From Escherichia coli (GTDB lineage: Bacteria > Pseudomonadota > Gammaproteobacteria > Enterobacterales > Enterobacteriaceae), in the NCBI RefSeq assembly GCF_011045215.1, contig NZ_CP049201.1: DNA of 64,000 bases. The stretch is one strand, 5' to 3'. The notes beneath the pieces were generated by a model. It was not told where the DNA came from, ran no database searches, and saw nothing but the letters and a program-made list of their open reading frames with translations. The translations under genes and the position numbers were made by a program. This document shows, piece by piece, positions 5,128 to 30,320 of the stretch. The number at the start of each line of letters is the position of its first letter. Positions within the stretch are counted from its first letter, which is position 1.

Positions 5128-7035
5128 ATGGCTGATAATTTTCAGCTGAAAGCCATCATCACCGCCGTTGACAGGCTATCCGGCCCGCTTAAAGGTATGC
5201 AGCGTCAGCTTAAGGGATTTCAGAAAGAAGTCTCCAGCCTTGCTCTGGGCGCTGCCGGGGCGGGTACTGCAATAATGGGGGCACTGGTACTCCCTGTAAA
5301 ATCAGCCATCACCCTTGAATCGAAGATGGCTGATGTCCGCAAAGTGGTGGACGGTCTGGATACGCCGGATGCGTTTAAGGCCATGACGGAGCAGGTGCGT
5401 GACCTGTCAACCGAACTGCCTATGTCGGCGGAAGGTATCGCTGAAATCGTGGCGGCGGGTGGTCAGGCCGGGATTGCACGTGATGAACTGATGCAGTTTG
5501 CCACTGATGCGGTGAAGATGGGCGTGGCCTTTGATACCACGGCTGAAGAGTCCGGGCAGATGATGGCCCAGTGGCGTACTGCGTTTAATATGACGCAGGA
5601 TGAAGTGGCCGGGCTGGCTGACAAAATCAACTACCTTGGTAATACCGGCCCGGCGAACGCGAAGAAAATCTCCGATATTGTTACGCGTATTGGTCCTTTA
5701 GGTGGTGTTGCAGGTGTGGCTTCCGGCGAAATCGCGGCAATGGGGGCAACCATTGCCGGGATGGGCGTGGAGTCAGAAATTGCCGCCACAGGGATCAAGA
5801 ACTTCATGCTTTCCCTGACCGCGGGAAATTCTGCGACAAAATCGCAGAAACAGGCATTGCGTTTTCTGCGGATCAATCCGAAGAAATTAGCTGCTGATAT
5901 GCAGAAAGATGCCCGGGGCACCATGCTATCTGTACTGGATGCGATGGCTAAAGTGCCTAAAGAAAAACGGGCAGCTGTGCTGAATGCCCTGTTCGGGAAA
6001 GAGTCTCTGGGCGCGATAGCACCTCTGCTGACTAACCTTGATTTGTTGCGTACCAACTTCAGGCGGGTTGCGGATTCCCAGCAGTATGGCAGTTCGATGC
6101 AGAAGGAATATGCTTCGAGGGCAGCGACGACGGAAAACCAGCTTTTACTTCTGCAAAATCAACTTGATGCCATTTCTTCCACGCTGGGGGAAACGTTTCT
6201 TCCTGAGGTTAATGATGGTCTTGAAGCGGTAAAACCGCTCCTTGAGGAAGTGAGAACGTTTGTCCGTGAAAACCCGGAGCTCGTTAAGACCATTGCTAAA
6301 ATCGGTCTGGCCTTACTGACGGTGGGAGCCGCTGCAGGCTCTTTGTCCAGAATTATGAAAGTTCTCGGCGGTGTGATGAATATGACGCCTGCTAAGGGGC
6401 TGATTGCTCTTCTGGTTGGTGGCGCTTACCTCATTATTGATAACTGGGAAACCGTAGGTCCTGTCATAAAAAAAGTCTGGCACGTGATGGATGAAACGGC
6501 GCAGGCGATGGGGGGATGGGAAACTGTTCTGAAAGCGATTGCCCTGTTTATGGCAACCAAATGGGTTGCTGACGTTACCAAATCCATTACCGCAGTGACC
6601 AGAGAGATGCGTACGCTGGGGAAGGTATCGGCAGAAACGGGATTGATGGGGAAAGGCCGCGGCTTTATCGGGAAGGCCGGGGTATATGGTTTTCTGGGAA
6701 CCCTGATGTATGAGCCGGTTAAAGATACTCTGGAAAGTGTTGTTCCTGAAGATACGGTTAACTGGCTGGATAATAAAGGGCTGTTTCTGGCTTCAGACTG
6801 GACGCCTTTTTTTGATCGTAAAGAGTACGAGCAATATCAGGCCAGCCTGAGTCAGTACAAACCCAATGTTCCGCTGTTGAATCCATCTTCTTCCATGACA
6901 CAGCACAGCGAGCTGAAAGTCACGTTCGAGAATGCTCCGCCAGGTATGAAGATAATTGATGTACCGGACAAAGCCGATCCCCTGATGAAAATCACGCACG
7001 ATGTGGGGTATTCCCCTTTTCGTTTTCCACGATAA
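5128..7035 (+). CDS. phage tail tape measure protein
   Basis: 635 aa, Ala/Gly-rich with a hydrophobic central segment; canonical position. Confidence 0.85.
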   Translation: MADNFQLKAIITAVDRLSGPLKGMQRQLKGFQKEVSSLALGAAGAGTAIMGALVLPVKSAITLESKMADVRKVVDGLDTPDAFKAMTEQVRDLSTELPMSAEGIAEIVAAGGQAGIARDELMQFATDAVKMGVAFDTTAEESGQMMAQWRTAFNMTQDEVAGLADKINYLGNTGPANAKKISDIVTRIGPLGGVAGVASGEIAAMGATIAGMGVESEIAATGIKNFMLSLTAGNSATKSQKQALRFLRINPKKLAADMQKDARGTMLSVLDAMAKVPKEKRAAVLNALFGKESLGAIAPLLTNLDLLRTNFRRVADSQQYGSSMQKEYASRAATTENQLLLLQNQLDAISSTLGETFLPEVNDGLEAVKPLLEEVRTFVRENPELVKTIAKIGLALLTVGAAAGSLSRIMKVLGGVMNMTPAKGLIALLVGGAYLIIDNWETVGPVIKKVWHVMDETAQAMGGWETVLKAIALFMATKWVADVTKSITAVTREMRTLGKVSAETGLMGKGRGFIGKAGVYGFLGTLMYEPVKDTLESVVPEDTVNWLDNKGLFLASDWTPFFDRKEYEQYQASLSQYKPNVPLLNPSSSMTQHSELKVTFENAPPGMKIIDVPDKADPLMKITHDVGYSPFRFPR

Positions 7036-15993: not shown

Positions 15994-16571
15994 CTTTATC
16001 AATGACTTATCTCCCGACTTCCCGTCTTGCTTTTCCTAAACAGAACAATCGTAGAATATTCTTGAAGGGTTAGATCGTCACTGTTTTCTGTTCGATACTG
16101 TGACATTCAGCACTTGATTCGCTATGGATCTGACAGGAAGGTTTTGAGCGAAAATCTGCAGTTATTCAGTCGTTTTCTTATCGGTCACCATTATTCTTTT
16201 AGACATTGATCCTACAAAGCTGCCGCAAAGTTGGTGGTGGGAACTGAAGTTGCGTAGAGAAGGGGTCAATACCCGGAGGCAAACATGGGCTGGCAAAAGT
16301 GTAGCGGTATTAGGCGCAGCTATTTAGCCTAGTTATGTTTTATGAAAACTTGATATCATATAAGTGTCTTACTTATTGGCTGTAAATAAGTTTTTCTAAG
16401 GAATTGTTTCTTGAGTATCATTTGTAACTGTAACGGAATTTATAATCCTTTGCTTTATTGTTACGGTATTTTTATCACACCCTATTTTTAGTGGTTTTTA
16501 TACTGAAGTTTGGCAAAGTGAACTTTATATACATATACTTCATCCTGTTTCAGTTAAATTGGGTGGATGAT

Positions 16572-17315
16572 ATGGCAACTACATGTTCAGTTATATTGAT
16601 TTTGGAGTCCTTTGATGTTTATTTCGGAAAAGAGAGTGTGTTTCTGGAGAGAGGTTCATCTGTACTTGTCGACTCTAGCTCTAGAGATTTTTTCCTGACA
16701 TATCCTGAAAGAGTGATAGTGGCGGATTTTGGCGCTGAGTTTATTAGTCGCTATTTGAAAGCTAATAACTTAAGGGATATTTCTGATTGTAGGGAATATC
16801 CATCTTATTTAAAAATAAACTTTGCTGACTTCAGTTTAATTAAAGGATTAATTAGTTGGGCTAATCACTGTGCTGAATACATAGAAATTTTTGATGAGTC
16901 TATTGCTTTTACATGTCTCTCTGCATTTTCTTCTGAAAAACAATTTGGAGTATTTCTGTTTGGATGTTTGAAAAGCACAGGGGCTAAAGTTAAAACGATT
17001 ATTCATACGGATTTATCTGCACCATGGCGTCTTAAGGATATATCATCAAGATTATATCTCAGCGAAAGTTTACTAAAGAGGAAATTGAAAGAAGAGGGGG
17101 TATCATTCAGTAAGATCATACTTGATGAGAGGATGCAAATGGCTGAATATTTACTCAGCACTCGTTGTTATCCTATTAGTAAAGTAGCTAAGGTCTGTGG
17201 TTATGCCAGTGTCTCATACTTTACTTATGTATTTAGACGTTATTTTGGTGTTTCTCCAAGTCAATACTCTCAGAGGAGTTCAGAAAGTAAAATTCTTACT
17301 CACCAGGGAATCTGA
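16572..17315 (+). CDS. AraC-family transcriptional regulator (AppY/EnvY/Rns-like)
   Basis: C-terminal HTH ...ISKVAKVCGYASVSYFTYVFRRYFGVSPSQY; N-terminus MATTCSVILILESFD aligns with the AppY start MDYVCSVVFICQSFD; AT-rich gene; the first 38 codons of track ORF 16458 are rejected. Confidence 0.8.
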   Translation: MATTCSVILILESFDVYFGKESVFLERGSSVLVDSSSRDFFLTYPERVIVADFGAEFISRYLKANNLRDISDCREYPSYLKINFADFSLIKGLISWANHCAEYIEIFDESIAFTCLSAFSSEKQFGVFLFGCLKSTGAKVKTIIHTDLSAPWRLKDISSRLYLSESLLKRKLKEEGVSFSKIILDERMQMAEYLLSTRCYPISKVAKVCGYASVSYFTYVFRRYFGVSPSQYSQRSSESKILTHQGI

Positions 17316-17321
17316 TCATTG

Positions 17322-17790
17322 TTCTTGCCCCCTTATTTCCAGACAGGGGGTGTATCTTAAGTTAACGTTACCCGCTGACGTCGATATTCTCGCGGAGAGC
17401 GATAACCCAACGCACTGTGCGGATGGTTTTCATTGTAATGTTCGATCGCCACTGCAAGATTATGCAATGCCGTTCTTACATTCGGTTTCGGCATGAACGC
17501 GATGTAGTCTTCCTTCATCGTTTTCACGAACCTTTCTGCAATTCCATTACTCTGAGGACTGCTGATTGCCGTTGTGCAGGGCTCCAGATTCAACTCTCTG
17601 GCGAACTGCCGTGTTTCATGCGCTCTATACGCTGAACCGTTATCTGTCAGCCACTGGATGGACTGTTCCGGTACTTTATCGCCAAAGCGTTTTTCTATCG
17701 CTCCTAACATGACATCCTGCACTGTCGCTTTATCGTAACCTCCCGTGCTTGCGGCCCAGTCTATGGCTTCACGATCGCAACAGTCCAGGG
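17322..17790 (-). mobile_element. IS2 remnant (terminal inverted repeat plus 3' part of the transposase gene; truncated)
   Basis: TTGCCCCCTTATTTCCAGACA end sequence at about 17326-17350; ORF 17357-17722 encodes an IS3-family integrase-core C-terminus (...[17 protein letters not shown]...); only about 0.45 kb of a 1.3-kb element is present. Right boundary is approximate. Confidence 0.55.
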
Positions 17791-18069
17791 CGATTCATCT
17801 GGGCCAATCCTCGCTCATAACAGGCATTCACTTCAGTCATGGCAGAAAGGTATGCATGCTGGAGAAGTCGTGAAAGAAAAGAAGACTGCTGCGCCGTTTG
17901 TCGTCACGTTTATCTTCATTGGCTATGCAAGTCGTAATACAAGGTGGGACAAAACTGAGACACATAAGGCCTCGCAATGGCTTGCAAGGCTTTACATGTT
18001 TTGATGTGGTGGGACGTGTGAGCGCAGTGTTGATGGGGTAATGCTTTGAATTAGAAGCGGATTCTTATA

Positions 18070-18115
18070 ATTCGTAATGCGAAGGTCGTAGGTTCGACTC
18101 CTATTATCGGCACCA
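18070..18115 (+). tRNA. partial tRNA-Thr (thrW) 3' fragment (pseudo-tRNA / att core)
   Basis: ATTCGTAATGCGAAGGTCGTAGGTTCGACTCCTATTATCGGCACCA equals the 3' 46 nt of thrW as recalled; the 5' half is replaced by unrelated sequence. Confidence 0.7.
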
Positions 18116-18280
18116 TTTCAACGTCTTTTCCCGTCTATTAAAATCCAAAAAACCCGCATATACTCTAGCTTTGAGCGCCCCCGATAGTGTTTTAACGTCT
18201 ATCAATATCTCCTAAAATCCACGTCTTTTGGGGGTATATTCGGGGGTATATGCTGTGTGGGCTACTGGAGATACCCCCAA

Positions 18281-19471
18281 ATGAAACTAAATGCCCGTCA
18301 GGTCGATACGGCCAAACCGAAAGAAAAACCCTATAAACTGGCCGATGGTGGTGGGCTTTATCTGCTTGTTAATCCCAATGGTTCCCGGTACTGGCGTTTA
18401 AAGTACCGGGTAGCCGGAAAAGAAAAGCTGTTGGCGCTGGGGGTATATCCCGATGTAACCCTGGCTGATGCCAGGGCGAAACGAGATGAGGCCAAAAGGG
18501 GTATGGCTGGGGGGATCGACCCGAACGAAGCGAAGCGGGAAGAAAAATTGAACCGCGAAGCGCAAATCAAAAACACCTTCGAAGAAATCGCCAGAGAGTG
18601 GCATACAGAACGGCAGAAGAAATGGTCTGAGGGGTACGCCTCGGACATTCTGGAAGCATTCAGTAAAGACATATTCCCTTGGATTGGAAAACGCCCCATC
18701 ACGGAAATAAAGCCCCTTGATTTGCTGAATACGCTTAAACGCATCGAGAATAGGGGAGCGACTGAAAAGGCCCGTAAGGTTCGCCAGTGGTGCGGGGAGG
18801 TCTGGAAGTATGCGATCGTTACCGCCCGCGCAGAATATAACCCCGCCCCTGATCTATCTGTGGCTATGGAAGGACACGAAGGGGAGCACTTCCCCCATCT
18901 GGAAGCCGAAGAGTTACCCGAATTTTTCCAGACGCTGGCGACGGCAAAAAGTAACGTTCAGGTTATTTTGGGGCTGCGTCTGCTTATTCTTGTGGGGTTA
19001 CGTCCGGTTGAATTACGCGCGGCCCCGTGGTCAGAGATTGATTTTGATAATGCCTTGTGGGAGATCCCCAAAGAGCGAATGAAGAAAAGACGTCCGCACG
19101 TTGTCCCGCTTTCTCGCCAGGCTATGGTTATTCTCGGGCAATTAAAAGAGTTGTCGGGCCGCAATCCTTTCATTTTTCCGGGCCGGAACGACCCGCGAAA
19201 GCCAATGAGTGAAGGAGCAATTAATCAGCTAATAAAGCGACTCGGGTATAAGGGCAAAGCTTGCGGGCATGGTTTCCGACATACCATGAGCACAATTTTG
19301 TATGAGAAAGGGTATAACACCGAATGGATCGAAACCCAGCTTGCACATGTTGATAAAAATACCATCCGTGGCACATATAATCATGCCCGCTATCTGGATG
19401 GACGCCGGGAAATGCTTCAATGGTATGCCGACTATATGGAATCGCTGGCGAGTGGCAGGGTAAAAGATTAG
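18281..19471 (+). CDS. P4-type tyrosine integrase
   Basis: MKLNARQVDTAKPKEKPYKLADGGGLYLLVNPNGSRYWRLKYR... is the canonical P4/CP4 integrase N-terminus; C-terminal HxxR...Y catalytic region present; lies 165 bp after the thrW fragment. Confidence 0.9.
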   Translation: MKLNARQVDTAKPKEKPYKLADGGGLYLLVNPNGSRYWRLKYRVAGKEKLLALGVYPDVTLADARAKRDEAKRGMAGGIDPNEAKREEKLNREAQIKNTFEEIAREWHTERQKKWSEGYASDILEAFSKDIFPWIGKRPITEIKPLDLLNTLKRIENRGATEKARKVRQWCGEVWKYAIVTARAEYNPAPDLSVAMEGHEGEHFPHLEAEELPEFFQTLATAKSNVQVILGLRLLILVGLRPVELRAAPWSEIDFDNALWEIPKERMKKRRPHVVPLSRQAMVILGQLKELSGRNPFIFPGRNDPRKPMSEGAINQLIKRLGYKGKACGHGFRHTMSTILYEKGYNTEWIETQLAHVDKNTIRGTYNHARYLDGRREMLQWYADYMESLASGRVKD

Positions 19472-19511
19472 AGAAGGTCTAAGACGGGAATACCGCTAAA
19501 TTAGATGTTAG

Positions 19512-19547
19512 GCGTGGACACTCAGCATCCACGCTTAAACTTTTTAT
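19512..19547 (+). terminator. rho-independent terminator of the integrase gene
   Basis: GCGTGGA-(9 nt)-TCCACGC hairpin followed by a T-rich tract (TTAAACTTTTTATT). Confidence 0.6.
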
Positions 19548-20041
19548 TATCATTTTCAATGAATTATGATTTTGGAAATTTTATAAAAAACACCAAGATT
19601 ACTAATCTATTGATTAATATGAAATATTTCTTTTTTTGATTATTAATTGTGCTCTTGATTGTTGTTTTTATGGTGTTAATTTATAAAAATCTTATTTATA
19701 GGAATTAACATTATATAGTTGGCACTTTTTGCTAAAATCTGTTTTTATTGTGTTTTATTTTTATTTCATTTTTGTTGTTGTTTGTTTGATTTTTAGTGTC
19801 TTTATATCTGGCTAATTGATTTCACTCAAACCATAAATCCTTTCAGAGGCTTCTAGAGTCTTCCTGAGGCTTAAATTGACTTAACTAAAAGTCAAGCCCC
19901 ACATCCCACATACATCTTTTTGACATGCACTTATGGCGTGAATAACAATGACTTCATCCAATCTACAGGCATCCTATAAAGTCAATGTCTGTATATAGAA
20001 AGATATTACATAACGTTTGAATGTTAATAGCGGGTGTGAAT

Positions 20042-20260
20042 ATGAGAAATGATGCAATGCAGCTTTTAAACCAGGGAAAAAGATTGATCCGCCTGCCTGA
20101 AGTTATGATGCTTACGGGGCGGTGTCGCGCCAGTATTTATAAAGATATCAATGCAAATGTCTTTCCAAAGCCGATTAAAACCGGCCCGCGTTCTGTCGCA
20201 TGGGTTGAGGGTGAGATCAGCGACTGGATCGACAACAAAATCAAAGAGCGCAAAGTGTAA
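20042..20260 (+). CDS. alpA: AlpA-family phage regulatory protein (excisionase-like)
   Basis: ...RLIRLPEVMMLTGRCRASIYKDINANVFPKPIKTGPRSVAWVEGEISDWI... matches the AlpA pattern; start is ambiguous (20042 or 20057). Confidence 0.75.
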   Translation: MRNDAMQLLNQGKRLIRLPEVMMLTGRCRASIYKDINANVFPKPIKTGPRSVAWVEGEISDWIDNKIKERKV

Positions 20261-20459
20261 ATCTGATTTTATTCAGAGATGAATATGATTTATTTGAATG
20301 CTAAGGATTTTGTGTATTCTTTTTGTTGTAAATACTCGTAGCATGGGGAGTTGGCAGTATTTATTCAGTATTAGGTTAAGTAGTGATAAAATACCAGGTA
20401 ATGCCGGTTTATGCAGTGTTTAATATATTTGTTGCTGGCGAAAATTTACGGAAAATTAA

Positions 20460-21332
20460 ATGAACATTACTGATATTATCAGCCATCGCGTATATCGTGA
20501 TGCGGATCTTGCTGTCATTAATAACACGGCATTTATTCAGCCTTATGACGGTTGTCACCGTGGGTTGTATGAAATGCGCGTTATTGAACTTTATCGCCTG
20601 AATAAAATGATGCACCTTACCCACGAATATAAATCTATTTCCGGGGAAAGCGTAGGCATTCCGGCGACTAAAGAGGAACTGTTTACACTGGTTAATAAAG
20701 GGCATGAACTTTGCCAGTCTGAACGGGAAAAGCTGGCGGCACTTGAAGCAGAATTGCAGCGTCTGCCAAGCCCGGCTGTAATTCCTGCGCCGCAGACGAT
20801 TAAAGAAGCACAGCAGGCCCGTAAATCACTAGAAGATGAAAGATACAGACTGCATCACGCAGCAATTAAAAATCAAGTCAAAGCACAGCAGGAAGAGTTA
20901 TCCATCAGACAAAACATTCTGGAATTGCTCGCGCCGGTTATTGATGTGTTGTTGGCCGTGGAAGATGTGGAACTGCTCGATCTGCGCCGTTCCCTGCCTA
21001 AGTCATCCCTCGATGCTAAGGCATTCAAAAAGGCGATTTCTGAAATTGAGTGTGCTGACCTTGCCTGGCAGAAAATGGATAAACTGGAGATTGCCCTTAA
21101 CAAGGTGGTGAACAACTGCACATATCGCCCGGAAGGAAGCATTAATCCCCGTTTTGTTAACCCTCTTAATGAAGATAAGCGGGAACGCGCCGAAATATCA
21201 CGCGATTATTACAGCTCTGAAATGGCCTTTATTCATACGGTGATGAGTGCAGATGAATATTTAAATTATATGTTGCCGATCCGTCACCAGCAGCGCGCGC
21301 AACGACTCACATTAGAAAGAAATATCAACTAA
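20460..21332 (+). CDS. hypothetical coiled-coil protein (possible capsid scaffold / size-determination factor)
   Basis: 290 aa with a long Gln/Glu/Leu-rich heptad-like central region; immediately upstream of, and on the same strand as, the capsid-like gene. Confidence 0.45.
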   Translation: MNITDIISHRVYRDADLAVINNTAFIQPYDGCHRGLYEMRVIELYRLNKMMHLTHEYKSISGESVGIPATKEELFTLVNKGHELCQSEREKLAALEAELQRLPSPAVIPAPQTIKEAQQARKSLEDERYRLHHAAIKNQVKAQQEELSIRQNILELLAPVIDVLLAVEDVELLDLRRSLPKSSLDAKAFKKAISEIECADLAWQKMDKLEIALNKVVNNCTYRPEGSINPRFVNPLNEDKRERAEISRDYYSSEMAFIHTVMSADEYLNYMLPIRHQQRAQRLTLERNIN

Positions 21333-21341
21333 GGAAGAATT

Positions 21342-22349
21342 ATGTCTTATGTAACACCAGATTATTTAACGCAGTATCACGAAAACCTGATTAAGTCTTT
21401 TAATATTAAATATAAAAACGAAGATACGGGGTATTTCACCATATCACAGCCGGAAAAAGCATCTCCGGATGCATGGGGATGTTCCACGCTTGATGTTAAA
21501 GGCTCGTCCTGGCTGATTGATAATATTTCATTACTGGACATTATCGGTGCGGATGGCACGACGATCACCATCGGTGATGGTTCCCTTTATACAGGCCGTG
21601 CAAAGGAAGGTCGCTTTCATAAGAAACTAAAAACCAACGGAACACCTTTTTTATTATCAGAAACGGATTCCTGCGCCTCATTGACTTATGAAGAAATGGC
21701 GGTAATGGCAAACGCGAAAAATTTCAGTAATGAAATGATCATTTTTTTCAAGAAGGCCGTGGTGCGGGATATGCTCCGTATTGGATTTAACGGCAAGATG
21801 ATTGCCGAAAATACCAACCCGGAACAATATAAAAACGGCGAAGATATCAATATTGGCTGGCACTCGCTGGCAAAAACATTCAATAACGGTTCACAAATTA
21901 TTTCTGATGCTTTCGCACTGGGGAAAGGCGGTGATTTTGCCGATGTTCACGATCTGGCTGATTGCCTCATCACGTCAAAAATCCCCGAAGGTCAGCGCGA
22001 AGATCCGGGCCTTGTGGTGATGGTTGGCGCGCAACTTGCCGCCCGCGAACGACTGAAACTGTTCAACATGGCCGATCAACCACTGACGCTGACGGCGGGG
22101 GATATGCTGACAAGCAGTGTCGCCGGTCGCTTTGCTTTTATCCCGCCGTTTATGCCGGGTAAGCGCCTGGCTGTTACGACGCTGAAAAATTTGCAGATCC
22201 TGACGCTGAAACACAGCCAACGCTACCGCGCGGAGGATATCCCGCAACGAGGTGTTTATGAGCATGGCTATTTACGTGAGGAAGGTTACGCGCTGGGGGA
22301 TGGCTATCTTTACGCGGCCAGCGATGAGAACGCCGTAACGCTGGTTTAA
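21342..22349 (+). CDS. P2 GpN-family major capsid protein homologue
   Basis: Segment LGKGGDFADVHDLADCLITSKIPEGQREDPGLVVMVGAQLAA parallels P2 gpN VGKGGDYASLDALVMDATNNLIEPWYQEDPDLVVIVGRQLLA (recalled from memory); FNGKM... also parallels gpN FNGVK... Confidence 0.6.
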   Translation: MSYVTPDYLTQYHENLIKSFNIKYKNEDTGYFTISQPEKASPDAWGCSTLDVKGSSWLIDNISLLDIIGADGTTITIGDGSLYTGRAKEGRFHKKLKTNGTPFLLSETDSCASLTYEEMAVMANAKNFSNEMIIFFKKAVVRDMLRIGFNGKMIAENTNPEQYKNGEDINIGWHSLAKTFNNGSQIISDAFALGKGGDFADVHDLADCLITSKIPEGQREDPGLVVMVGAQLAARERLKLFNMADQPLTLTAGDMLTSSVAGRFAFIPPFMPGKRLAVTTLKNLQILTLKHSQRYRAEDIPQRGVYEHGYLREEGYALGDGYLYAASDENAVTLV

Positions 22350-22561
22350 GTATCGAGTACAGCCAGCTTTGACAGTGATGGCCAGATAAAAGAAAACCCT
22401 CTCACCGGAACGAACAAGAAACGATAAGAGGGTTTATCAGGAAGATGATTCTACGTGATGAATTATACCGAGAAACAACCGATGCTTACCAGCAAAAACG
22501 CGTCACTGTTTGTGCAGCTGGCACCGTCCGATCTGACGGTGTTTTCCGGAATGGTAAGGAG

Positions 22562-22753
22562 CTATTCCTTTGCCTTTTTGCGCTGTTCTGCTTTCAGCTT
22601 GCGCCCGCAGGCATCCAGCACCCAAGCGGAAAAACTTGAACCCGGATTATCGACTTTTTCGCGTTCTACGCAGGCATCAATTTCTGCGATCATTTCATGC
22701 GGGAAGCGTATTCCCTTGTATGTTGTTTTGCTGTTTATGTGGTTTTTAGTCAT
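22562..22753 (-). CDS. putative small DNA-binding regulator (ribbon-helix-helix-like), about 63 aa
   Basis: MTKNHINSKTTYKGIRFPHEMIAEIDACVEREKV... has RHH-like strand-helix character; divergent from the downstream operon with operators between; start codon uncertain (M15/M24/M33 of the track ORF). Confidence 0.45.
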   Translation of the reverse strand: MTKNHINSKTTYKGIRFPHEMIAEIDACVEREKVDNPGSSFSAWVLDACGRKLKAEQRKKAKE

Positions 22754-22769
22754 GCTGGAAACTCTTAAG

Positions 22770-22870
22770 TGTTTAAACATCAGTAAAGATACAGTAAAGC
22801 CGGACATAACAAAACTGTTTAAACAAAATCTGTTGACTTGTTTAAACACTCAGCATAATGTGTTTAAACA
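22770..22870. promoter_or_regulatory. operator array: four copies of the palindrome TGTTTAAACA within divergent promoters
   Basis: Exact copies at 22770-22779, 22816-22825, 22839-22848 and 22861-22870; TTGACT (22833-22838) and CATAAT (22854-22859) hexamers interleave with the right-hand pair. Confidence 0.6.
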
Positions 22871-22960
22871 GTTTGCTACGTTGCAAACTGAAAAAACGAA
22901 GCCCGGCAGTGTTGACGCACTAACCGGGCCTCTGACCAACACGTTATTAGGAGTAACGCT

Positions 22961-23164
22961 ATGGCTAGCCATCAGTGTAACCAAACTCGCCCTAAAAATC
23001 GCCTATTTCTCTTTCTCGCGGTATCACGGGCCGACATGCAGGACAAACCACACCGCGAACAAATCACCGCGTACAGCGAACAGGAAGCCCGTTCCATGCT
23101 GGCCGGTCGCTTTATCCTCTGCTTTGCTGGCCGTCTGCCGGTTCAGGAGGTGCACCATGTTTAA
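22961..23164 (+). CDS. hypothetical protein (67 aa), first gene of the coupled operon
   Basis: AGGAG 7-8 nt upstream of the ATG; stop overlaps the next start (ATGTTTAA). Confidence 0.4.
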   Translation: MASHQCNQTRPKNRLFLFLAVSRADMQDKPHREQITAYSEQEARSMLAGRFILCFAGRLPVQEVHHV

Positions 23165-23405
23165 CCCACTGGACAACCGCAAAGCGGCGGCGCTTAACCC
23201 GTTCCACGATGACTGTTACGATCCGCCAGCCTTTATTAAACCGGGTTCAAAAGTAGTGGTTGAAATTGATTCCCGGGAAATGGAGGTCGCTATTCTAGCC
23301 GCTTATGACTACGGACTGGACGCGCTGAACGACGATGGCCGGGAAGAGCTTAACCGCTTAATTGCTGACCTGAAAGACAAGATAACGGAGGCGCGGTATG
23401 CATAA
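23158..23405 (+). CDS. hypothetical protein (82 aa)
   Basis: Strong SD (caGGAGGtg) before the ATG at 23158; acidic protein; the rest of track ORF 22455-23405 is rejected. Confidence 0.55.
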
Positions 23406-23823
23406 TCTGCTTAATTCACCGTTGCCAGTGTCTATGGATCTCTTTCAGGCTGGCGAGATGTGCGGGCATTTTGTCGCGCGGTTAACGGATGAAAGTTGTG
23501 TTGACGAGACTGAACGCGTCGCACTTTGCGGACGTCTGGCTTTTGCCCTGCGTTCTCTTTCATCTCTTTGTGATACAGACTATCCATCGCATATCCAGGC
23601 GCAATTAACCGCGACTGCTATTCCTGCTCCCTGCGTACCTGATGAGTGGATCGACGCGACGATCATGACGGGCTATTGCACCGCCTTAAATGATGCGCTG
23701 CTTAGTCGCTCCCTTCGTATGGACGTTGAAACACAATTACGCTGGCTTTTGCATGACATGATTAATTTACTTGTCAGATATCTGAAACAGCCTTGTATTA
23801 AGGCGGGAGTAGATCATGTCTGA
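23398..23823 (+). CDS. hypothetical protein (141 aa)
   Basis: Start overlaps the previous stop by 8 nt; Cys-containing; no known motif. Confidence 0.55.
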   Translation: MHNLLNSPLPVSMDLFQAGEMCGHFVARLTDESCVDETERVALCGRLAFALRSLSSLCDTDYPSHIQAQLTATAIPAPCVPDEWIDATIMTGYCTALNDALLSRSLRMDVETQLRWLLHDMINLLVRYLKQPCIKAGVDHV

Positions 23824-24214
23824 AATTATGCTCACACCGTTTCACGTTGACCGCCATTTTTACGATCTGGTTTACGGTGCTTCATTTTTTGCGGATGCAT
23901 TACCTGCAATGAATGATATCAAGCAGCAGCGGCTTTATTGTCGATTATTGCAATTAAATCTGGTTGTTTTATTTGAAAAACGGTCGCGGGATATTCCCCC
24001 AATTCAGTCGAGTAAAATAAAAATCGCTGATGAGGTTATATTTCTTAATGTCGATAATATTTATCATGCGCTTTCCCTGACTGCCGGGCTGATAAGTCAG
24101 GATATCAGTAAGGGGATGGAAAAAGAACTGGCTGAATATATCAGGGATATTATTAGTATTATTTTTAATGAAATGCGAATGCAGATGGTTGATTATGATC
24201 CATATGAAATGTGA
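23816..24214 (+). CDS. hypothetical protein (132 aa), AT-rich gene
   Basis: Start overlaps the previous stop by 8 nt; composition shifts to AT-rich. Confidence 0.5.
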   Translation: MSEIMLTPFHVDRHFYDLVYGASFFADALPAMNDIKQQRLYCRLLQLNLVVLFEKRSRDIPPIQSSKIKIADEVIFLNVDNIYHALSLTAGLISQDISKGMEKELAEYIRDIISIIFNEMRMQMVDYDPYEM

Positions 24215-24310
24215 GACGAATAAAACAATAATCGATTTATAAGAACTGAAAAATATTTAATTATAACCGTATTTTAACGGGGGATAATTACGCCCCTGTA
24301 AGGAAAATAT

Positions 24311-24580
24311 ATGTCTGATTTGAATACCATTGCTGTTAATAGTGCTGAAAAATATCTTAGCCTTGAGTGCTTCCATAAACTCAACCGCGCAAGGAATGTT
24401 TCATTCCAGATGCATTTACAGATCCGTCAGTGTGAGATAAACGGCCTGCCACTTTTATGGATTCCAGATATTTTCAGCTATATCAGCGAAGACATATCCG
24501 CCGTTCTGGAAGAAGCCAAAGTACTTGGCCTTTGCGATAAGTTCACAGGCGAAGCCCGGATCGGTCAGGTCAGTCTTTAA
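24311..24580 (+). CDS. hypothetical protein (89 aa)
   Basis: Same strand, between the coupled operon and the primase gene. Confidence 0.45.
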   Translation: MSDLNTIAVNSAEKYLSLECFHKLNRARNVSFQMHLQIRQCEINGLPLLWIPDIFSYISEDISAVLEEAKVLGLCDKFTGEARIGQVSL

Positions 24581-24643
24581 TTTTTTGTATTCCGCGCCGC
24601 CCGCTGCGGCGCATTGTCTTACCCATTAATAAAGGTCATACCG

Positions 24644-27376
24644 ATGCAAGGTAAAAAAGTTTCACAGACAGCAGGACGCGCGGCGGGCCAGTGGGAAAAT
24701 ATTCTTGAACACCTGGGGATTACTGTTCCTGCGGGTGGTCTTCATGGCCCCTGCCCGATCTGCGGCGGTAAAGATCGTTTTCGCTTTGATAATAAAAAAG
24801 GGCGTGGAACCTGGTTCTGCAACCAGTGCGGCCACGGTGACGGGCTGGATCTGGTCAAACTGGCGCTTTCGCTGGACACCGGGCCAGCCGCTGATCGAGT
24901 TGCTGAATTACTTCCGGCCCTTCCTCCGCCTGCGGTCATGCAGCCTGCCAGAAAAGAAGCCAGTGACGAAGGTCGCCCACATGACTACTGGCAACGCCTC
25001 TTTGCCCGTACTCAGCCGGGGGAAAGCCCTTACCTTACGGCGCGGGGGCTGACAGGTTTTGAACTGCCGCTGACCGTTCAGGAGATGAAAACCGCTGGCG
25101 GTGTTTTTCCGGCTGGTTCGCTTTTATTACCGATCACGGACACCGAAGGACGGATGACCGGTGCACAGCTTATCGGCCCGGACAAGGTAAAAGGCTTATG
25201 TGCTGGCACCAGGAAAAAAGGGCGTTTTATCTCTGTCGGGCCGTTCCCGGAGAAAATGCCCGCGCGGATCATTATCTCGGAAGGCTTTGCCACTGCGTTA
25301 AGCGCATCCCTGCTTTCAGAGGGCTGGAGTATTGCGGCGCTGGATAAAGGCAACCTGAAAGACGTTGCGGAGCAAATCCGCCAGAAATGGCCGGACGTGC
25401 AGATCGTTATTGCCGGTGATAATGACTTTTCTGACGGTAAACCCAATCAGGGGAAAGAGTCTGCGATCAAAGCTGCACTGGCCGTTAAGGGATGGATGAC
25501 CATTCCTCCCGGACGGATCAAAGTTGACTGGGATGATTACCGCCGTGAATTTGGCCTCCAGCGCGCCCGTGACGCATTCGCGGAAGAACTGCTTAACCCG
25601 GCAGACACCGAAACGCGTTTACCGCATGGTTTCCGCCTGACGAAGGATTATCTTTGGTTTGATCGCCCGCTCAGTGACGGTAGCGAAAGCGGCCAGACTC
25701 GCCAGGTGAAGATATGTAGCCCGCTCAAAGTGACGGCCATCACCAGCGACGGCGAAGGCGGTAAATTCGGGCGTCTGCTTGAGTGGGAAGACTCCAGCGG
25801 ATTACGGCATGAATGGGCGATGCCAATGACAGTGCTTGCCGGAAGCGGTCAGGAGCTGCGGGAGGTTCTGCTTGATAACGGAATGCACTTTATCAGCGTG
25901 AACGGCGCGGCGCGTAGCTATCTGATGGAATACATTTCTAACTGTCGCCCGGTTCGCCGCGTCACCTGCGTTGAAAAAACAGGCTGGTTTAGCGGTGCGT
26001 ATGTTCTCCAGGATGAGGTGATCGGCAGCGATGCCGGATCGGTCATCCTCCAGTCTGCTATGTCGTCTAAAAATGACTTCCGGGTGAGCGGAACGGTGGC
26101 GGAATGGGCGCAACACGTCGGGCGCTATTGTGCCGGAAATTCCCGCCTGGTGTTCTGCGTCAGTCTGGCGCTGGCCGCGCCGTTACTGAATATTATTGGT
26201 GTTGGCGGCGGCGGTTATCACCTTAAGGGCGAATCCACGGACGGCAAGACAACCACAATGAAGGTAGCGGCGTCTGTCTGCGGCGGGCCTGATTTCTGGA
26301 AAACGTGGCGGGCAACCGGAAACGCGCTGGAAGGTATTGCGCTACGCCGTAATGATGCCGCCCTGATGCTGGATGAAATCAGCGAAGTTGACGGCAGAGA
26401 GGCTAGCCGGATCGCCTATATGCTGGGGAACGGGCAGGGCAAAGCAAGGGGGCGCGTTGATGGCAGCGTCCGCGATCCGGTGACCTGGACATTGCTTTAC
26501 CTGTCCACCGGGGAAATCTCTATTGCGGAACATGCCGCCGAAGCCGGAGAAAAGCGAACCGGCGCGGGTGTCGGTGTGCGTATGGTGCAAATCCCCAGCG
26601 ATACCGGAAAACATGGCGCTTTCGAAAATCTCCACGGCATGGAAGGCGGTAAAGCGTTTGCGGAATACCTTGAACAGACCTGTAAACAATATTACGGCGC
26701 GCCGTTCCGCGAATGGTTGCGCTGGCTGGCGGCAAATCTGACGGAAACCGCGAACCGGGCGCGGGCAATGAAAAAAGAGTATGAACGGACATTATTACCC
26801 GAAGATTCCGGCAAGCAGGTTGGGCGCATTGTGGATCGCTTTGCACTGTTGGCCGTTGCGGGGGAACTGGCGAGTGAAGCGGGGATCACAGGCTGGCAAC
26901 CAGGAGAAGCGTATAACGCTGCAAGAAGCTGTCTGGCGGCATGGCTTAACGATCGTGGACATGCGGCCAACCAGGAAGAAGCCGACGCGCTGGAGAAGGT
27001 GCGGCGCTTTATTACGGCCAATCAGTACACACGCTTTGCTGACTGGTATGACGAGAAAAACCGCCCGTCAAATATGGTTGGCTTTCGCCGGGTGGAGAAA
27101 GGCGGGAACGGTATTGGCATGAGCAAAAAGGAGAACAGCGGCGATACTGTTAAAGACGGGGACGCCACTAAAGAGCCGGAAACCACATTTTATATCCTGC
27201 CCAGCGGATGGAAGGAAATTTGCGGGACGTCGGACAGCGTTAAAACGGCGAGACTATGCGACGAGGCTGGATGGCTTGTAAAGGATGAAGATCGCCAGCG
27301 CCTACAACGTACAGTAAGACTACCGGAAATTGGCTTAAAGAAAGTGTATGTGTTCAGCGGCGAAGTGATCGGATAA
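24644..27376 (+). CDS. P4 alpha-type DNA primase/helicase (zinc-binding, Toprim and P-loop helicase domains)
   Basis: CPICGGKDRFRF...WFCNQCGHGDG zinc motif; Toprim-like IISEGFATALSA...IAGDNDF; Walker-type region further downstream; true start ATG 24644 (the track ORF begins at a TTG). Confidence 0.9.
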   Translation: MQGKKVSQTAGRAAGQWENILEHLGITVPAGGLHGPCPICGGKDRFRFDNKKGRGTWFCNQCGHGDGLDLVKLALSLDTGPAADRVAELLPALPPPAVMQPARKEASDEGRPHDYWQRLFARTQPGESPYLTARGLTGFELPLTVQEMKTAGGVFPAGSLLLPITDTEGRMTGAQLIGPDKVKGLCAGTRKKGRFISVGPFPEKMPARIIISEGFATALSASLLSEGWSIAALDKGNLKDVAEQIRQKWPDVQIVIAGDNDFSDGKPNQGKESAIKAALAVKGWMTIPPGRIKVDWDDYRREFGLQRARDAFAEELLNPADTETRLPHGFRLTKDYLWFDRPLSDGSESGQTRQVKICSPLKVTAITSDGEGGKFGRLLEWEDSSGLRHEWAMPMTVLAGSGQELREVLLDNGMHFISVNGAARSYLMEYISNCRPVRRVTCVEKTGWFSGAYVLQDEVIGSDAGSVILQSAMSSKNDFRVSGTVAEWAQHVGRYCAGNSRLVFCVSLALAAPLLNIIGVGGGGYHLKGESTDGKTTTMKVAASVCGGPDFWKTWRATGNALEGIALRRNDAALMLDEISEVDGREASRIAYMLGNGQGKARGRVDGSVRDPVTWTLLYLSTGEISIAEHAAEAGEKRTGAGVGVRMVQIPSDTGKHGAFENLHGMEGGKAFAEYLEQTCKQYYGAPFREWLRWLAANLTETANRARAMKKEYERTLLPEDSGKQVGRIVDRFALLAVAGELASEAGITGWQPGEAYNAARSCLAAWLNDRGHAANQEEADALEKVRRFITANQYTRFADWYDEKNRPSNMVGFRRVEKGGNGIGMSKKENSGDTVKDGDATKEPETTFYILPSGWKEICGTSDSVKTARLCDEAGWLVKDEDRQRLQRTVRLPEIGLKKVYVFSGEVIG

Positions 27377-27419
27377 GACCTGCTGACACCGCTATAACTA
27401 ACGGTGTTGGCCAGCTTCC

Positions 27420-27700
27420 GGCCCTGGAAACATAGCCAGCCAGGAAGAAGTGATCGCACGTATCATATTTTTTAGTGGAAACAGTGGGAACATAGGGAAC
27501 AGACTTGATTTATAAAGGTTTTATTTGTTCCCAATTACTGTTCCCATATGGTAACAGGTGGTAATGTATTTTAAATCATATGGTTATGTTGATATGCAAA
27601 GCGTTGTTCCCAGTTGTAAAAGAGAGATGGGAACAGGAAAAAGGTATAAATATCAACACTGTTACCATTGTTCCCACTGTTTCCACCATTTTTGACAATA
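27420..27700. repeat. iteron cluster (GGGAACA / TGTTCCC heptamers), putative replication origin or cis replication region
   Basis: At least 7 exact copies in both orientations plus variants (GGAAACA, TGTTACC, TGTTTCC) within about 280 bp directly after the primase gene; resembles P4 ori/crr TGTTCACC iterons. Confidence 0.55.
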
Positions 27701-27724
27701 ACAATATTTAATTTCGGGGAAAAT

Positions 27725-27741
27725 GCTTTTCCCTGGCTGGC
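27725..27741. repeat. 17-bp direct repeat, left copy (GCTTTTCCCTGGCTGGC)
   Basis: Exact copy of 30005-30021; lies 20 bp upstream of the P2-like integrase start. Confidence 0.5.
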
Positions 27742-27760
27742 TAACATCAAAGGTAAAGAA

Positions 27761-28726
27761 ATGAGCATTAAGAAACGTCCTGATGGAAAATGGCTGGTAG
27801 ATATGCGGCCCGCAGGTCGTAAAGGAAAACGTATTCGCAGGGTTTTTAACAGGAAATCGGAGGCCCTGGCATTTGAGATGTATTACCTGGTCCGTTCTCA
27901 ATCGCCGGAATGGGCAACGAACTTCACAGACCGCAGATTATTAAGCGATTTGCGTAAAACATGGTGGGACCTGTTTGGACACGCCAGAAATAACGCAGAA
28001 ACTGAAAAGCGCCAGCTTGATAAAACCATCCGGCAGATGGGAGATCCACCAGTTAACCGGCTTACAATCCGCTTCATTCTGGAATTCAGAGCAGGCCGTG
28101 TTTCAGGGAAATTAAAGGCATCCACGATAAATCGCGATATGTACCGGTTATCAGGCATGTTTACCGAATTAATTAAAGCAGGTGAGTGTAAAAATAATCC
28201 GTTCCGTAGTCTTGAACCGTTAAAGGAAGAACCTTCCGCAGTAACGTTTCTGACCCACGAAGAAATTAGCATGTTACTGGAAAAACTGGAGGGAGATTCG
28301 CGTAAGCTGGCGTTACTGTGTCTTAATACTGGGGCGCGTTTCAGTGAAGCCGCGAATCTAACGGCTGAAATGGTTAACAACCGTCGTGTAACGTTTATTA
28401 AGACAAAGAACGGGAAGCAGCGGACAATACCCATTTCATCTGAACTCGAAAAGGAAATAAAAACAAAAAATTCAGGTCAACTTTTCACGGTGGATTATAA
28501 ATGGTTTTCCCGCAGGTTGAAGGCAATCAAACCGGATTTACCGGATGGACAGGCAACGCATGTATTACGACATACTTTCGCCAGTCATTTCATTATGAAT
28601 GGGGGAAATATTGTTGTATTAAAAGAGATTCTTGGACATGCCAATATTCAGCAAACTATGATTTATGCACACTTTGCGCCTGAATTTCTGGCGCAGGCTG
28701 TAACATTGAATCCATTTAGTAAGTAA
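27761..28726 (+). CDS. P2-like tyrosine integrase
   Basis: MSIKKRPDGKWLVDMRPAGRKGKRIRRVFNRKSEALAFE... parallels P2 Int MAIKKLDDGRYEVDIRPTGRNGKRIRRKFDKKSEAVAFE (from memory); C-terminal HxLRHTFASHF...Y region present. Confidence 0.85.
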   Translation: MSIKKRPDGKWLVDMRPAGRKGKRIRRVFNRKSEALAFEMYYLVRSQSPEWATNFTDRRLLSDLRKTWWDLFGHARNNAETEKRQLDKTIRQMGDPPVNRLTIRFILEFRAGRVSGKLKASTINRDMYRLSGMFTELIKAGECKNNPFRSLEPLKEEPSAVTFLTHEEISMLLEKLEGDSRKLALLCLNTGARFSEAANLTAEMVNNRRVTFIKTKNGKQRTIPISSELEKEIKTKNSGQLFTVDYKWFSRRLKAIKPDLPDGQATHVLRHTFASHFIMNGGNIVVLKEILGHANIQQTMIYAHFAPEFLAQAVTLNPFSK

Positions 28727-28754
28727 CTGCGGATTTTCTTTTGAATGTACAAAA

Positions 28755-29012
28755 CTAACGTTGAAGTAATTCTTTCATGACCGTTTTTTGTTCCGGCGTC
28801 ATCATGTCAATCATTGTTTTTACTGCTTTATCCCCAGTCAGAGCGCTGGGGCTTAGCGTATGGGAGAACGTCATATTCATAACGAAGGTATGCCCACATT
28901 CAACATTATTACAGGCACAATACATATCAGACAGGTGGGGATGCTTGCGCACTGTCTTTTTTGTTGTTGAATTACTTCCACACTCAGGACAAACAATTTT
29001 ATGGCTGCGCAT
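28755..29012 (-). CDS. Ogr/Delta-family zinc-finger transcriptional activator
   Basis: CPECGSNSTTKKTVRKHPHLSDMYCACNNVECGHTF: a CxxC...CxxxxC zinc finger typical of P2 Ogr / P4 Delta; convergent with the integrase, 28 bp apart. Confidence 0.8.
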   Translation of the reverse strand: MRSHKIVCPECGSNSTTKKTVRKHPHLSDMYCACNNVECGHTFVMNMTFSHTLSPSALTGDKAVKTMIDMMTPEQKTVMKELLQR

Positions 29013-29430
29013 AATAATCACCACTCGTAAAAGGCGCATTATTATACCACTATTTGCATTAAACAAAAAAAAGAAATTGATATAAATTATCAATAATATC
29101 ATCGTGTTATGTCATTCCATTCTTTCTTTGCTTTTAACTTAGTGTCACGCAATTTGATTTTTTTTGTTTTAATTTTCATATGGTTACGTTATTTTGATTA
29201 AAGATTGAATTTTACGATGACTGTAATTATTGAAATCCTTTTCAACTGATTGCATTTTTTTCAGTCTCAAATTTCATGTAAAACCCCGTTTAACGCCTGT
29301 TCTGGCGCTTCTTTCCTGCAATTTTCCAAACTGAAAAAATTCTCACTACGTAAACACCGTGGGCGTGCGGGTGAGCGCGGTTTTGGTCCCGCTGGCGTTT
29401 GCGTCGTAACAAGTCAGAAACATACAACCA

Positions 29431-29452
29431 CATGTACAACTAGCTGTACATA
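29431..29452. promoter_or_regulatory. putative YefM-type operator (paired TGTACA hexamers)
   Basis: caTGTACAactagcTGTACAta lies 45 bp upstream of the antitoxin start. Confidence 0.45.
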
Positions 29453-29495
29453 TGCAATACTTACGACGTAATAACTTGGCGGACGGAAAAACACT

Positions 29496-29741
29496 ATGCA
29501 ACACGTAAACTATACCGATGCTCGACAGCATTTAGCTGACCTGATGCAGCAGGCTAATGATGATCGTGCGCCAATCCTGGTTACGCGTAAGGGTGCTAAA
29601 AGCGTAGTAATGATCGATGCGGAAGAGTTCGCATCGATTCAGGAAACGTTACACCTGTTCAGTAACCCGGCGAACGCCGCACACATTGAAGCCAGCCTTG
29701 CATCGCTCGAACGCGGCGATTATGAGGAACTGGACATTTAA
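29496..29741 (+). CDS. type II antitoxin, Phd/YefM family
   Basis: 81 aa; ...RAPILVTRKGAKSVVMIDAEEFASIQETLHLFSNPANAAHI... matches the YefM pattern; 1-nt overlap with the toxin gene. Confidence 0.85.
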   Translation: MQHVNYTDARQHLADLMQQANDDRAPILVTRKGAKSVVMIDAEEFASIQETLHLFSNPANAAHIEASLASLERGDYEELDI

Positions 29742-30001
29742 TGAAAGTCAGGATATCCCCGCAGGCAAAAGGCGATCTTCAGTACTGGGCTGAGAATGAC
29801 CCAAAGACGTATAACAAGGTAATGGAGCTAATCAAATCGGCTAAGGAAAGCCCCTTCAAGGGGATAGGGAAGCCGGAGGCGCTAAAGCATCGTAAGCCGC
29901 TTTGGTCACGTCGAATCACGAAAGAACATCGCCTGGTGTATTACGTTGAGCAAGGCGATCTGTACATTGTTGCGTGTCGCTATCACTACACCACGATTTA
30001 A
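29741..30001 (+). CDS. type II toxin, YoeB/Txe family mRNA interferase
   Basis: 86 aa; ...GIGKPEALKHRKPLWSRRITKEHRLVYYVEQGDLYIVACRYHY is the conserved YoeB C-terminus. Confidence 0.85.
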   Translation: MKVRISPQAKGDLQYWAENDPKTYNKVMELIKSAKESPFKGIGKPEALKHRKPLWSRRITKEHRLVYYVEQGDLYIVACRYHYTTI

Positions 30002-30004
30002 ACA

Positions 30005-30021
30005 GCTTTTCCCTGGCTGGC
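30005..30021. repeat. 17-bp direct repeat, right copy (GCTTTTCCCTGGCTGGC)
   Basis: Exact copy of 27725-27741; begins 4 bp after the yoeB-like stop. Confidence 0.5.
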
Positions 30022-30320
30022 GGGTTTACCTTAACTTTGCCAGCACTGTTTAAACGCCCGCCGCTCTCTCCCAAATACAGTATAAAAAGCAATCAATTAT
30101 TGTGGACGTAAAAGCGCATGGGGGTACAATTGGGGGTACGTTGGTTATCCATTATGTAATAAATTCATAATAAACATGGTGTTATATTGCATGTTTAACT
30201 CTTATTATCTACCCCATATTCAAATACACCACGTTTCCTCCTGTGCCGTATTTATGCCATTGTAACCCTGGCAATTAATCAAAATACTGTTCTGACATCA
30301 GGCAATGCAGGTGCAGACAT

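Follow-up and report, generated by a model that had tools for sequence, protein, structure and literature searches.

The tract at positions 19472 to 20041 (570 bp) of the 64-kb stretch of Escherichia coli DNA analyzed here (contig NZ_CP049201.1; hereafter, the window) separates the integrase gene int from the regulator gene alpA in a P4-like satellite located at the tRNA gene thrW. We consider this tract to be most likely the control region of alpA, in which the sequence suggests the presence of a terminator, an AT-rich spacer, a phased repeat array, a promoter, and a leader. The original prediction had listed a regulatory region among several possible functions of this gene-free tract, and the anatomy that we recognized agrees with that option. 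In particular, the following elements were identified in the tract:

19508 to 19550, plus strand: predicted intrinsic terminator of int, with an 11-bp stem (19508 to 19518 and 19528 to 19538), a 9-nt loop, and a T-run (19541 to 19545)
19549 to 19840, no strand: AT-rich core of about 290 bp, 21% GC, allelic and non-homologous between sister satellites
19554 to 19566, plus strand: predicted IHF-like site 1, TTTCAATGAATTA, with one mismatch to WATCAANNNNTTR
19603 to 19615, minus strand: predicted IHF-like site 2, AATCAATAGATTA, with the exact consensus
19846 to 19885, plus strand: four cox-box-like direct repeats in a 10-bp phase, GAGGCTTCTA, GAGTCTTCCT, GAGGCTTAAA, and TTGACTTAAC, which share the core GNCTT
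19887 to 19896, plus strand: conserved box AAAAGTCAAG, which precedes the -35 element by about 24 bp
19920 to 19949, plus strand: predicted sigma-70 promoter of alpA, with the -35 element TTGACA (19920 to 19925), an 18-bp spacer, and the -10 element AACAAT (19944 to 19949)
19956 to 20041, plus strand: predicted alpA leader of about 85 nt, conserved at the DNA level

The tract is exactly delimited by the int stop codon TAG (19469 to 19471) and the alpA start codon ATG (20042), and the identical 570 bp are left unannotated in the RefSeq records of two near-identical E. coli copies. As originally described, it contains no open reading frame (ORF) of at least 60 amino acids, the longest complete ORF on either strand being one of 44 amino acids (19505 to 19639). 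This lack of ORFs is unsurprising, because it follows from composition (ORFs of at least 60 amino acids are also missing from 85% of mononucleotide shuffles of the tract). The real anomalies are the composition of the tract and its intergenic length, which ranks third among the ORF-free stretches of the window, not the absence of ORFs. The GC content of the whole tract is 29.5%; in the AT-rich core it is 21%, with 147 T against 83 A residues, and the 300 bp with the lowest GC content of the entire window fall within the tract (20.7 to 22%, compared to a mean of 49.9% with a standard deviation of 7.7%; z of about -3.6).

For the comparative analysis, 19 distinct copies of the int-alpA interval were gathered from Escherichia and Salmonella through the relatives of AlpA, whose close relatives form just three clusters, and of the 290-amino-acid ORF that follows alpA. 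They belong to a lineage A, with the thrW integrase and a gap of 524 to 585 bp, and a lineage B, with an integrase only 38% identical, a different chromosomal site, and a gap of 473 to 492 bp. All 19 copies lack called genes, measure 473 to 585 bp, and have a GC content of 29 to 33%. Since the terminator and the architecture of the gap are common to elements whose integrases are only 38% identical, the gap appears to travel with the module comprising alpA and the capsid gene downstream of it, not with int. The tract itself is rare: of 5,426 complete E. coli genomes, megablast detected it in 2 and sensitive blastn in 3, and searches of the phage and plasmid collections gave no match; the viral contigs searched for further relatives yielded two loci only. 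The original prediction had proposed a search for variability of this interval among related elements: no inserted genes were found within the family, but the sequence does vary, in the form of allelic, non-homologous cores.

The part of the tract closest to alpA is the best conserved. The 126 bp at its 3' end (19916 to 20041), corresponding to the promoter and the leader, are 79 to 94% identical across lineage A, compared to 41 to 55% in the core. The predicted promoter, which would start transcription near position 19956, matches the consensus at 10 of 12 positions and is the only promoter-like site on the plus strand between 19300 and 20500. Furthermore, a TTGAC(A/T) element with a -10-like hexamer at a distance of 17 to 18 bp is kept in lineages A and B (17 bp in B), which carry different integrases, and the distance from the -35 element to the ATG is constant within each lineage (122 bp in A and 86 bp in B). 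Upstream of the promoter, the sequence RGTCAAY, in the conserved box, stands out from its variable surroundings, as all alleles of lineages A and B have retained it.

At the opposite end of the tract, a GC-rich hairpin followed by a U-tract, as expected of an intrinsic terminator, occurs right after the int stop codon in four alleles. In the window, the predicted fold has an energy of -14.7 kcal/mol (z of -2.8 compared to shuffles), whereas the other three alleles retain the hairpin and the U-tract with different 3' arms (z of -3.4 to -4.5); the 5' arm, GGCGTGGACA, is shared by lineages A and B. The terminator was missed by the scanning tool, whose loop limit of 8 nt is exceeded by the 9-nt loop. 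In the same region, most alleles of both lineages (L003, L092, L098, and all lineage B gaps) contain the direct repeat TGTGGACA-N3-TGTGGACA, in spite of the low identity of their integrases (38%); in the window allele (19510 to 19520), the second TGTGGACA copy is replaced, leaving a simple hairpin. This repeat could be part of the terminator alone or a protein-binding site as well.

The phased array lies just upstream of the alpA -35 element, 157 to 196 bp from the alpA ATG. The sequence GAGKCTT occurs there in three copies exactly 10 bp apart, and its count over the whole window is at the chance level (11 occurrences, compared to 12.2 expected). In all five independent alleles examined, a lag of 10 bp gives the top or near-top self-similarity (z of 2.6, 1.7, 3.5, 1.9, and 5.2), and insertions and deletions within the array occur only in multiples of 10 bp: AGGCTTATAA is present in two copies in L093, three in L101, and four in L100, and a 10-bp duplication is found in L096. 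Several direct repeats with a spacing of 10 to 11 bp, upstream of a promoter, are the layout of the cox boxes at the P4 promoter PLL, and the window array thus has this layout.

Between the terminator and the array, the core is variable in sequence. The four core alleles of lineage A are 41 to 55% identical to one another, and shuffled cores reach 42 ± 5% when aligned alike; little divergence is seen in the flanking genes, with synonymous p-distances of 0.05 to 0.20 for int and 0.02 to 0.36 for alpA. Breakpoints coincide with the terminator hairpin on one side and with the -35 element on the other. It follows from these alignments that the core is allelic, not merely diverged, and that it has been swapped as a unit between sister elements. 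Moreover, L087 carries the core allele of the window (84% identity) despite having the most diverged alpA and 290-amino-acid ORF, and L003 has an int 98% identical to that of the window with an unrelated core; as these two cases show, the history of the core is decoupled from that of both flanks. L087, a copy from Salmonella salamae (6001 to 6225), also presents a frameshift at the C terminus of AlpA, resulting in a different, longer tail, and its upstream control region is still the allele of the window.

Despite this turnover, the core keeps a length of 220 to 300 bp and a GC content of 21 to 29%. Only the allele of the window has a T-rich top strand, and a conserved strand bias was rejected for this reason. 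IHF-like site 1 has a counterpart with the perfect consensus at the equivalent position of the L003 and L092 alleles, and the block TCAATRAATTA is conserved there in the alignment; site 2 is exact at the homologous position in all lineage A alleles, though the surrounding core is only about 41 to 55% identical. The chance expectation for the IHF consensus is about 0.1 to 0.2 matches per sequence, and both sites may be bound by IHF. With 79% AT, the core has the AT content of H-NS-silenced, horizontally acquired DNA; the silencing by H-NS put forward in the original prediction is plausible in terms of composition, and we regard an involvement of this protein as quite possible, somewhat short of an even chance. 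As a separate observation, the lineage B cores of L086, L102, L093, and L104 contain a conserved CRP-like site, AAATGTGA-N6-TCACATTT, in the middle of the core, about 190 bp upstream of the alpA -35 element; its half-sites are perfect in L086 and L102, and the allele of the window has no such site.

On this basis, it is possible to hypothesize how the control region might work. The terminator after int would end the transcription of the integrase gene and insulate the alpA promoter from read-through. Without a helper phage, the promoter would be held quiet, and both H-NS and IHF would probably use the AT-rich core as a substrate. In the presence of an active P2-like helper, a winged-helix protein could load on the array, with one protomer per helical turn, and switch on alpA and the downstream genes; the candidates for binding to the array would be a Cox/Apl-type protein of the helper, AlpA itself through recognition of the GNCTT core, or both. 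AlpA would then drive excision and the cycle of the satellite. This model would parallel both P4, where Cox acts at PLL, and the phage-inducible chromosomal islands (PICIs) of Gram-negative bacteria, where alpA is helper induced and autoactivated. The identification of a Cox-type protein of the helper as the specific activator is a tentative proposal, to which we give a little over a third of our confidence.

Several observations weigh against the control region as we propose it. The promoter, the start site, the IHF sites, and the role of H-NS are predictions. None of the four units of the window array falls within one mismatch of the P2 cox-box consensus, with which they share only the GNCTT core; by the same measure, two to three units are found in L087 and L096, 164 to 175 bp from the ATG. 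The TGT-N12-ACA dyad near position -55, by which late promoters responding to Ogr/Delta are recognized, is missing from 19472 to 20041, while P4 has TGTAAGACAGCCTGAACA upstream of vis, its alpA homologue, and an Ogr/Delta-dependent late promoter in the tract was thus rejected. Matches to the H-NS nucleation motif TCGATAAATT are not enriched over shuffled sequence. Intrinsic curvature was rejected as well, as the allele of the window shows no more than a marginal periodicity of A/T tracts (p of about 0.05 at 11.5 bp) and the other alleles show none. The core shows no sequence constraint, so that any specific role for it beyond spacing and composition would be conjectural. Finally, with regard to the helper phage, the nearest phage capsids, which are ESSI-2-like, share only about 41% identity with the product of the capsid gene of the satellite (21342 to 22349).

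A partner of the array encoded by the satellite was also considered and rejected, as the array alleles co-vary with no satellite gene examined. In particular, array and core alleles show no co-variation with AlpA, whose helix-turn-helix is invariant within each lineage, with the early genes, epsilon, or the type of the alpha primase, or with delta or the block at 22.5 to 22.9 kb. A further and rather improbable hypothesis is that the core and the array together (19549 to 19915) form a non-coding specificity cassette, the allele of which would decide which helper's Cox/Apl-type protein switches the satellite on. According to this equally doubtful scenario, the population would maintain old non-homologous alleles, which recombination at the conserved blocks of the terminator and the promoter would reassort without regard to any satellite gene. 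If this were true, the tract would be a cis-acting "helper sensor" under diversifying selection.

Among the alternatives to a control region, the one that survives best, although we consider it unlikely, is that of an empty or decayed cargo slot, also suggested by the original prediction. The tract would then be neutral filler at the place where P4-type satellites carry a hotspot, cos, and psu-delta-sid, and only the terminator and the promoter at its ends would matter. In its favor, the literature places the main cargo hotspot of P4 next to the integrase: the canonical order in P4-like elements is int, hotspot/cos, psu-delta-sid, hotspot, and alpA, and most accessory and defence genes of P4 sit in the first interval after the integrase (PMC8628076; bioRxiv 10.64898/2026.02.27.708500). 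The stretch of genes that canonically runs from int to alpA is here collapsed into 570 bp. Furthermore, among 80 loci with integrases 47 to 74% identical, the interval, wherever an alpA homologue could be detected downstream, is either empty (165 to 335 bp) or 800 to 2,700 bp long with one to two unrelated ORFs (DUF6387, unknowns, and an IS630-type transposase); CP4-57 carries yfjH at the corresponding position, and the similarity of the core alleles, no greater than that of shuffled sequence, is also what would be expected of filler. Within the satellite family, however, the slot is occupied in none of the 19 variants, from two lineages and two genera, and both length (473 to 585 bp) and GC content (29 to 33%) are held despite complete sequence turnover. 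Also at odds with filler are the two IHF-like sites, kept in position, and the phased repeats, which vary in copy number only by 10-bp units. No coding trace was found in the tract, nor any similarity to cargo genes, phages, or plasmids; in particular, a decayed gene was rejected, as tblastx and blastn searches against the cargo genes of the 80 related loci gave chance-level matches only, with none in the phage and plasmid collections.

The original prediction had also proposed that the tract may encode a small RNA or micro-peptides. P4 itself uses a small immunity RNA, and the intergenic region is long, with an ATG-initiated ORF of 44 amino acids (19505 to 19639) and several ORFs of 25 to 28 amino acids. 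Nevertheless, we hold both possibilities to be very improbable. No match to the covariance models of Rfam 15 was obtained at an E value of at most 1 between 17500 and 24000; the leader and both strands of the core fold no better than shuffles (z of +0.10, -0.30, and -0.55, respectively), so that the leader has no significant predicted RNA structure; and the sole terminator is that of int, at the 5' end. No ORF of at least 20 amino acids keeps its frame in all the relatives compared: most of them, including that of 44 amino acids, are broken within the same core allele, and all are broken in the other alleles. The T-rich strand bias, being allele specific, offers no conserved signal.

An equally remote idea is that the tract is a P4-type replication origin, that is, an AT-rich unwinding region with iterons bound by alpha, as in the intergenic region between vis and sid of P4. 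The homologous position upstream of vis is indeed annotated as ori in P4 (9086 to 9809), with type 1 and type 2 repeats, and no other DNA of the element is as AT rich as the tract; however, the iteron TGTTCCC occurs seven times at 27486 to 27675, next to alpha, and never in the gap, as is also the case in L002, and L003 has its own iteron, TGTAACC, 10 times near alpha and never in the gap. The same search applied to P4 as a positive control gives seven iterons in crr and six in the vis-sid gap. Moreover, the gap alleles do not co-vary with the type of alpha, allele B3 being found with both types of primase. The iterons of the window form a cluster (27475 to 27690) just downstream of alpha, with seven copies of TGTTCCC/GGGAACA arranged as an 82-nt imperfect inverted repeat; the 10 copies of TGTAACC in L003, which has a different primase, are located at the same place. 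This cluster is likely the single origin or the equivalent of crr.

Two other candidates were rejected: a cos site, since no P2-type cohesive end was found within three mismatches anywhere in the window, and a sigma-54 promoter at TTGGCAC-N5-GC (in the 19720s), since its spacing falls short by 2 bp and L003 does not retain the motif. In terms of annotation, a control region of alpA would make the tract ordinary: instead of an overlooked gene, it would hold a promoter and a terminator.

The element that contains the tract is about 12 kb long (about 18066 to 30216). Its gene content (int, alpA, an epsilon-like gene, the alpha primase, and Ogr/Delta) identifies it as a P4-like satellite, in accordance with the original assignment; it lacks sid and psu and has a P2-family capsid gene of its own. 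The features around the tract are the following:

18066 to 18115, plus strand: partial 3' copy of the tRNA-Thr gene thrW (attL core), which marks the left end of the satellite; positions 18091 to 18115 are identical to the 3' end of thrW
18281 to 19471, plus strand: tyrosine integrase gene int, 396 amino acids (from the ORF table; Pfam Arm-DNA-bind_3, Phage_int_M, and Phage_integrase)
20042 to 20260, plus strand: alpA, 72 amino acids, encoding a regulator/excisionase of the AlpA/Vis family (Pfam PF05930, 1.2e-18; PHROG "excisionase and transcriptional regulator")
20460 to 22349, plus strand: co-directional genes after alpA, namely, the conserved 290-amino-acid ORF and the P2-family major capsid gene (Pfam PF05125, 1e-54; phrog_70)

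The identity of the two genes flanking the tract, predicted from the beginning as an integrase and an AlpA-family regulator, is thus corroborated by Pfam (PF00589 and PF05930). The 290-amino-acid ORF (20460 to 21332) has no match in Pfam or PHROGs; its homologues form 31 clusters, and all the clusters with a named source come from Escherichia or Salmonella. In lineage A, a second gene-free, AT-rich spacer (20261 to 20459; 199 bp, about 37% GC) separates it from alpA, and in lineage B, the corresponding distance is only 35 bp. After the capsid gene, the satellite contains an opposite-strand YlcI/DUF3950-like gene, an Icd-like gene, small ORFs, the epsilon-like "Derepression" gene, and the DUF927/Toprim primase gene (alpha), followed by a second tyrosine recombinase gene, an opposite-strand Ogr/Delta gene, and a Phd/YoeB toxin-antitoxin pair.

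Only the 3' part of thrW is present at the left end, a complete tRNA gene was not found by ARAGORN between 17000 and 45000, and an intact thrW directly precedes related elements. Upstream of the satellite, we noticed a transposase fragment (17357 to 17722, minus strand), an AT-rich AraC-like ORF (16458 to 17315), and Mu-like tail genes (1 to 12.6 kb). Because of the partial thrW and of these upstream genes, the satellite is the distal member of a tandem array of islands at thrW.

The second tyrosine recombinase gene (27668 to 28726; Int_N and Phage_integrase), between alpha and Ogr/Delta, lies in a segment that is swapped for unrelated sequence in the near-identical copies L001 and L002. The Phd/YefM-YoeB pair (29496 to 30001) is located at the attR end; in P4-like satellites, its place has been described as the minor "primase-to-att" hotspot. 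A mosaic block at 22500 to 22900, which differs between the window and the near-identical L001, contains a 25-nt inverted repeat (interval 22812 to 22874) and the only TGT-N12-ACA (22831 to 22848) near a promoter-like position; it is a candidate for the immunity or late-control region of the satellite.

Compared to known systems, the tract resembles the cargo hotspot of P4-like elements in being the first interval after the integrase and in being a mosaic, recombination-prone segment. However, it is gene free in 19 of 19 variants, the right-hand neighbors psu and sid are absent, and the accessory genes (the second recombinase and Phd/YoeB) sit at the other end of the satellite, between alpha and attR. 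Variable genes between int and psu-delta-sid, the hallmark of that hotspot, have their counterpart only in the distant integrase relatives. CP4-57 of E. coli K-12 shares the order and the orientation of intA and alpA and the proximity of a small stable-RNA gene as the attachment site (ssrA, encoding the transfer-messenger RNA, in CP4-57 and thrW here). Different from the satellite, its 1,243-bp interval is filled by yfjH on the opposite strand, with 43 bp left upstream of alpA and no comparable AT-rich tract.

The resemblance with the region upstream of vis in P4 is closer. In the P4 record (X51522), vis (ORF88), which encodes an AlpA homologue, is directly preceded by a gene-free, low-GC interval of 552 bp, compared to the 570 bp of the tract. 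This interval contains three tandem 10-bp "ori type 2 repeats" of the form TGNCTTTAA (GCTTTAAGTG, GGCTTTAAAT, and GACTTTAAGT in the direction of vis), 146 to 175 bp from the vis ATG. They correspond to cox boxes, as the reverse complement of TTAAA(G/C)NC(A/C), and a scan with this consensus recovers three of them at 157 to 177 bp. P2 Cox binds six or more cox boxes, with a spacing of 10 to 11 bp, upstream of PLL and derepresses P4 (PMC3936717). In both P4 and the window, the tandem direct repeats have a 10-bp phase, the core GNCTT(T)AA, the same orientation, and a similar distance from the ATG (157 to 196 bp in the window), and the CTT columns of the window repeats fall in the 10-bp register of the P4 cox boxes. 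However, the tract has a good consensus sigma-70 -35 element instead of the Ogr/Delta box, it has no divergent Psid promoter or sid operon, its upstream neighbor being the 3' end of int, and its core is far more AT rich (21% GC, compared to about 34%). Since it has no type 1 iterons for alpha, no units with the cox-box consensus, and no Ogr/Delta box, we suggest that the tract would act like the PLL part of the P4 region without being an origin or a strict member of the P2 Cox-box class. It would thus illustrate, in a satellite provided with its own capsid gene, what the control region upstream of vis looks like after the loss of the origin iterons and of the Ogr/Delta box.

With the PICIs of Gram-negative bacteria (EcCICFT073 and EcCIMP1), compared by gene layout, the window shares adjacent and co-oriented int and alpA genes, a long intergenic control region, and the position of alpA at the head of the downstream operon. 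In these islands, the helper phage acts through the alpA region to switch the island on, and AlpA stimulates its own promoter (PMC6092414; PMC11773190); AlpA overexpression triggers excision and replication (PMC6092414), and in EcCIMP1 the fragment from -449 to +50 of alpA is helper inducible (PMC11773190). Different from PICIs, the element of the window has P4-type replication and derepression genes (the alpha primase, the epsilon-like "Derepression" gene, and Ogr/Delta) and a P2-family capsid gene, not the packaging genes of PICIs. The alpA region of PICIs nevertheless offers what appears to be the closest functional precedent for a long control region between int and alpA. A control region upstream of vis/alpA is already known from P4 and PICIs, and the tract would be a new variant of it. 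Which product of the helper phage turns on alpA in Gram-negative PICIs, and where, is still unsettled (PMC6092414). With regard to this question of the helper signal, the tract represents a compact promoter that lends itself to comparison, for which the phased GNCTT array is a clear candidate operator, and the availability of natural array alleles and copy-number variants with an invariant AlpA makes the alpA switch amenable to reporter swaps.

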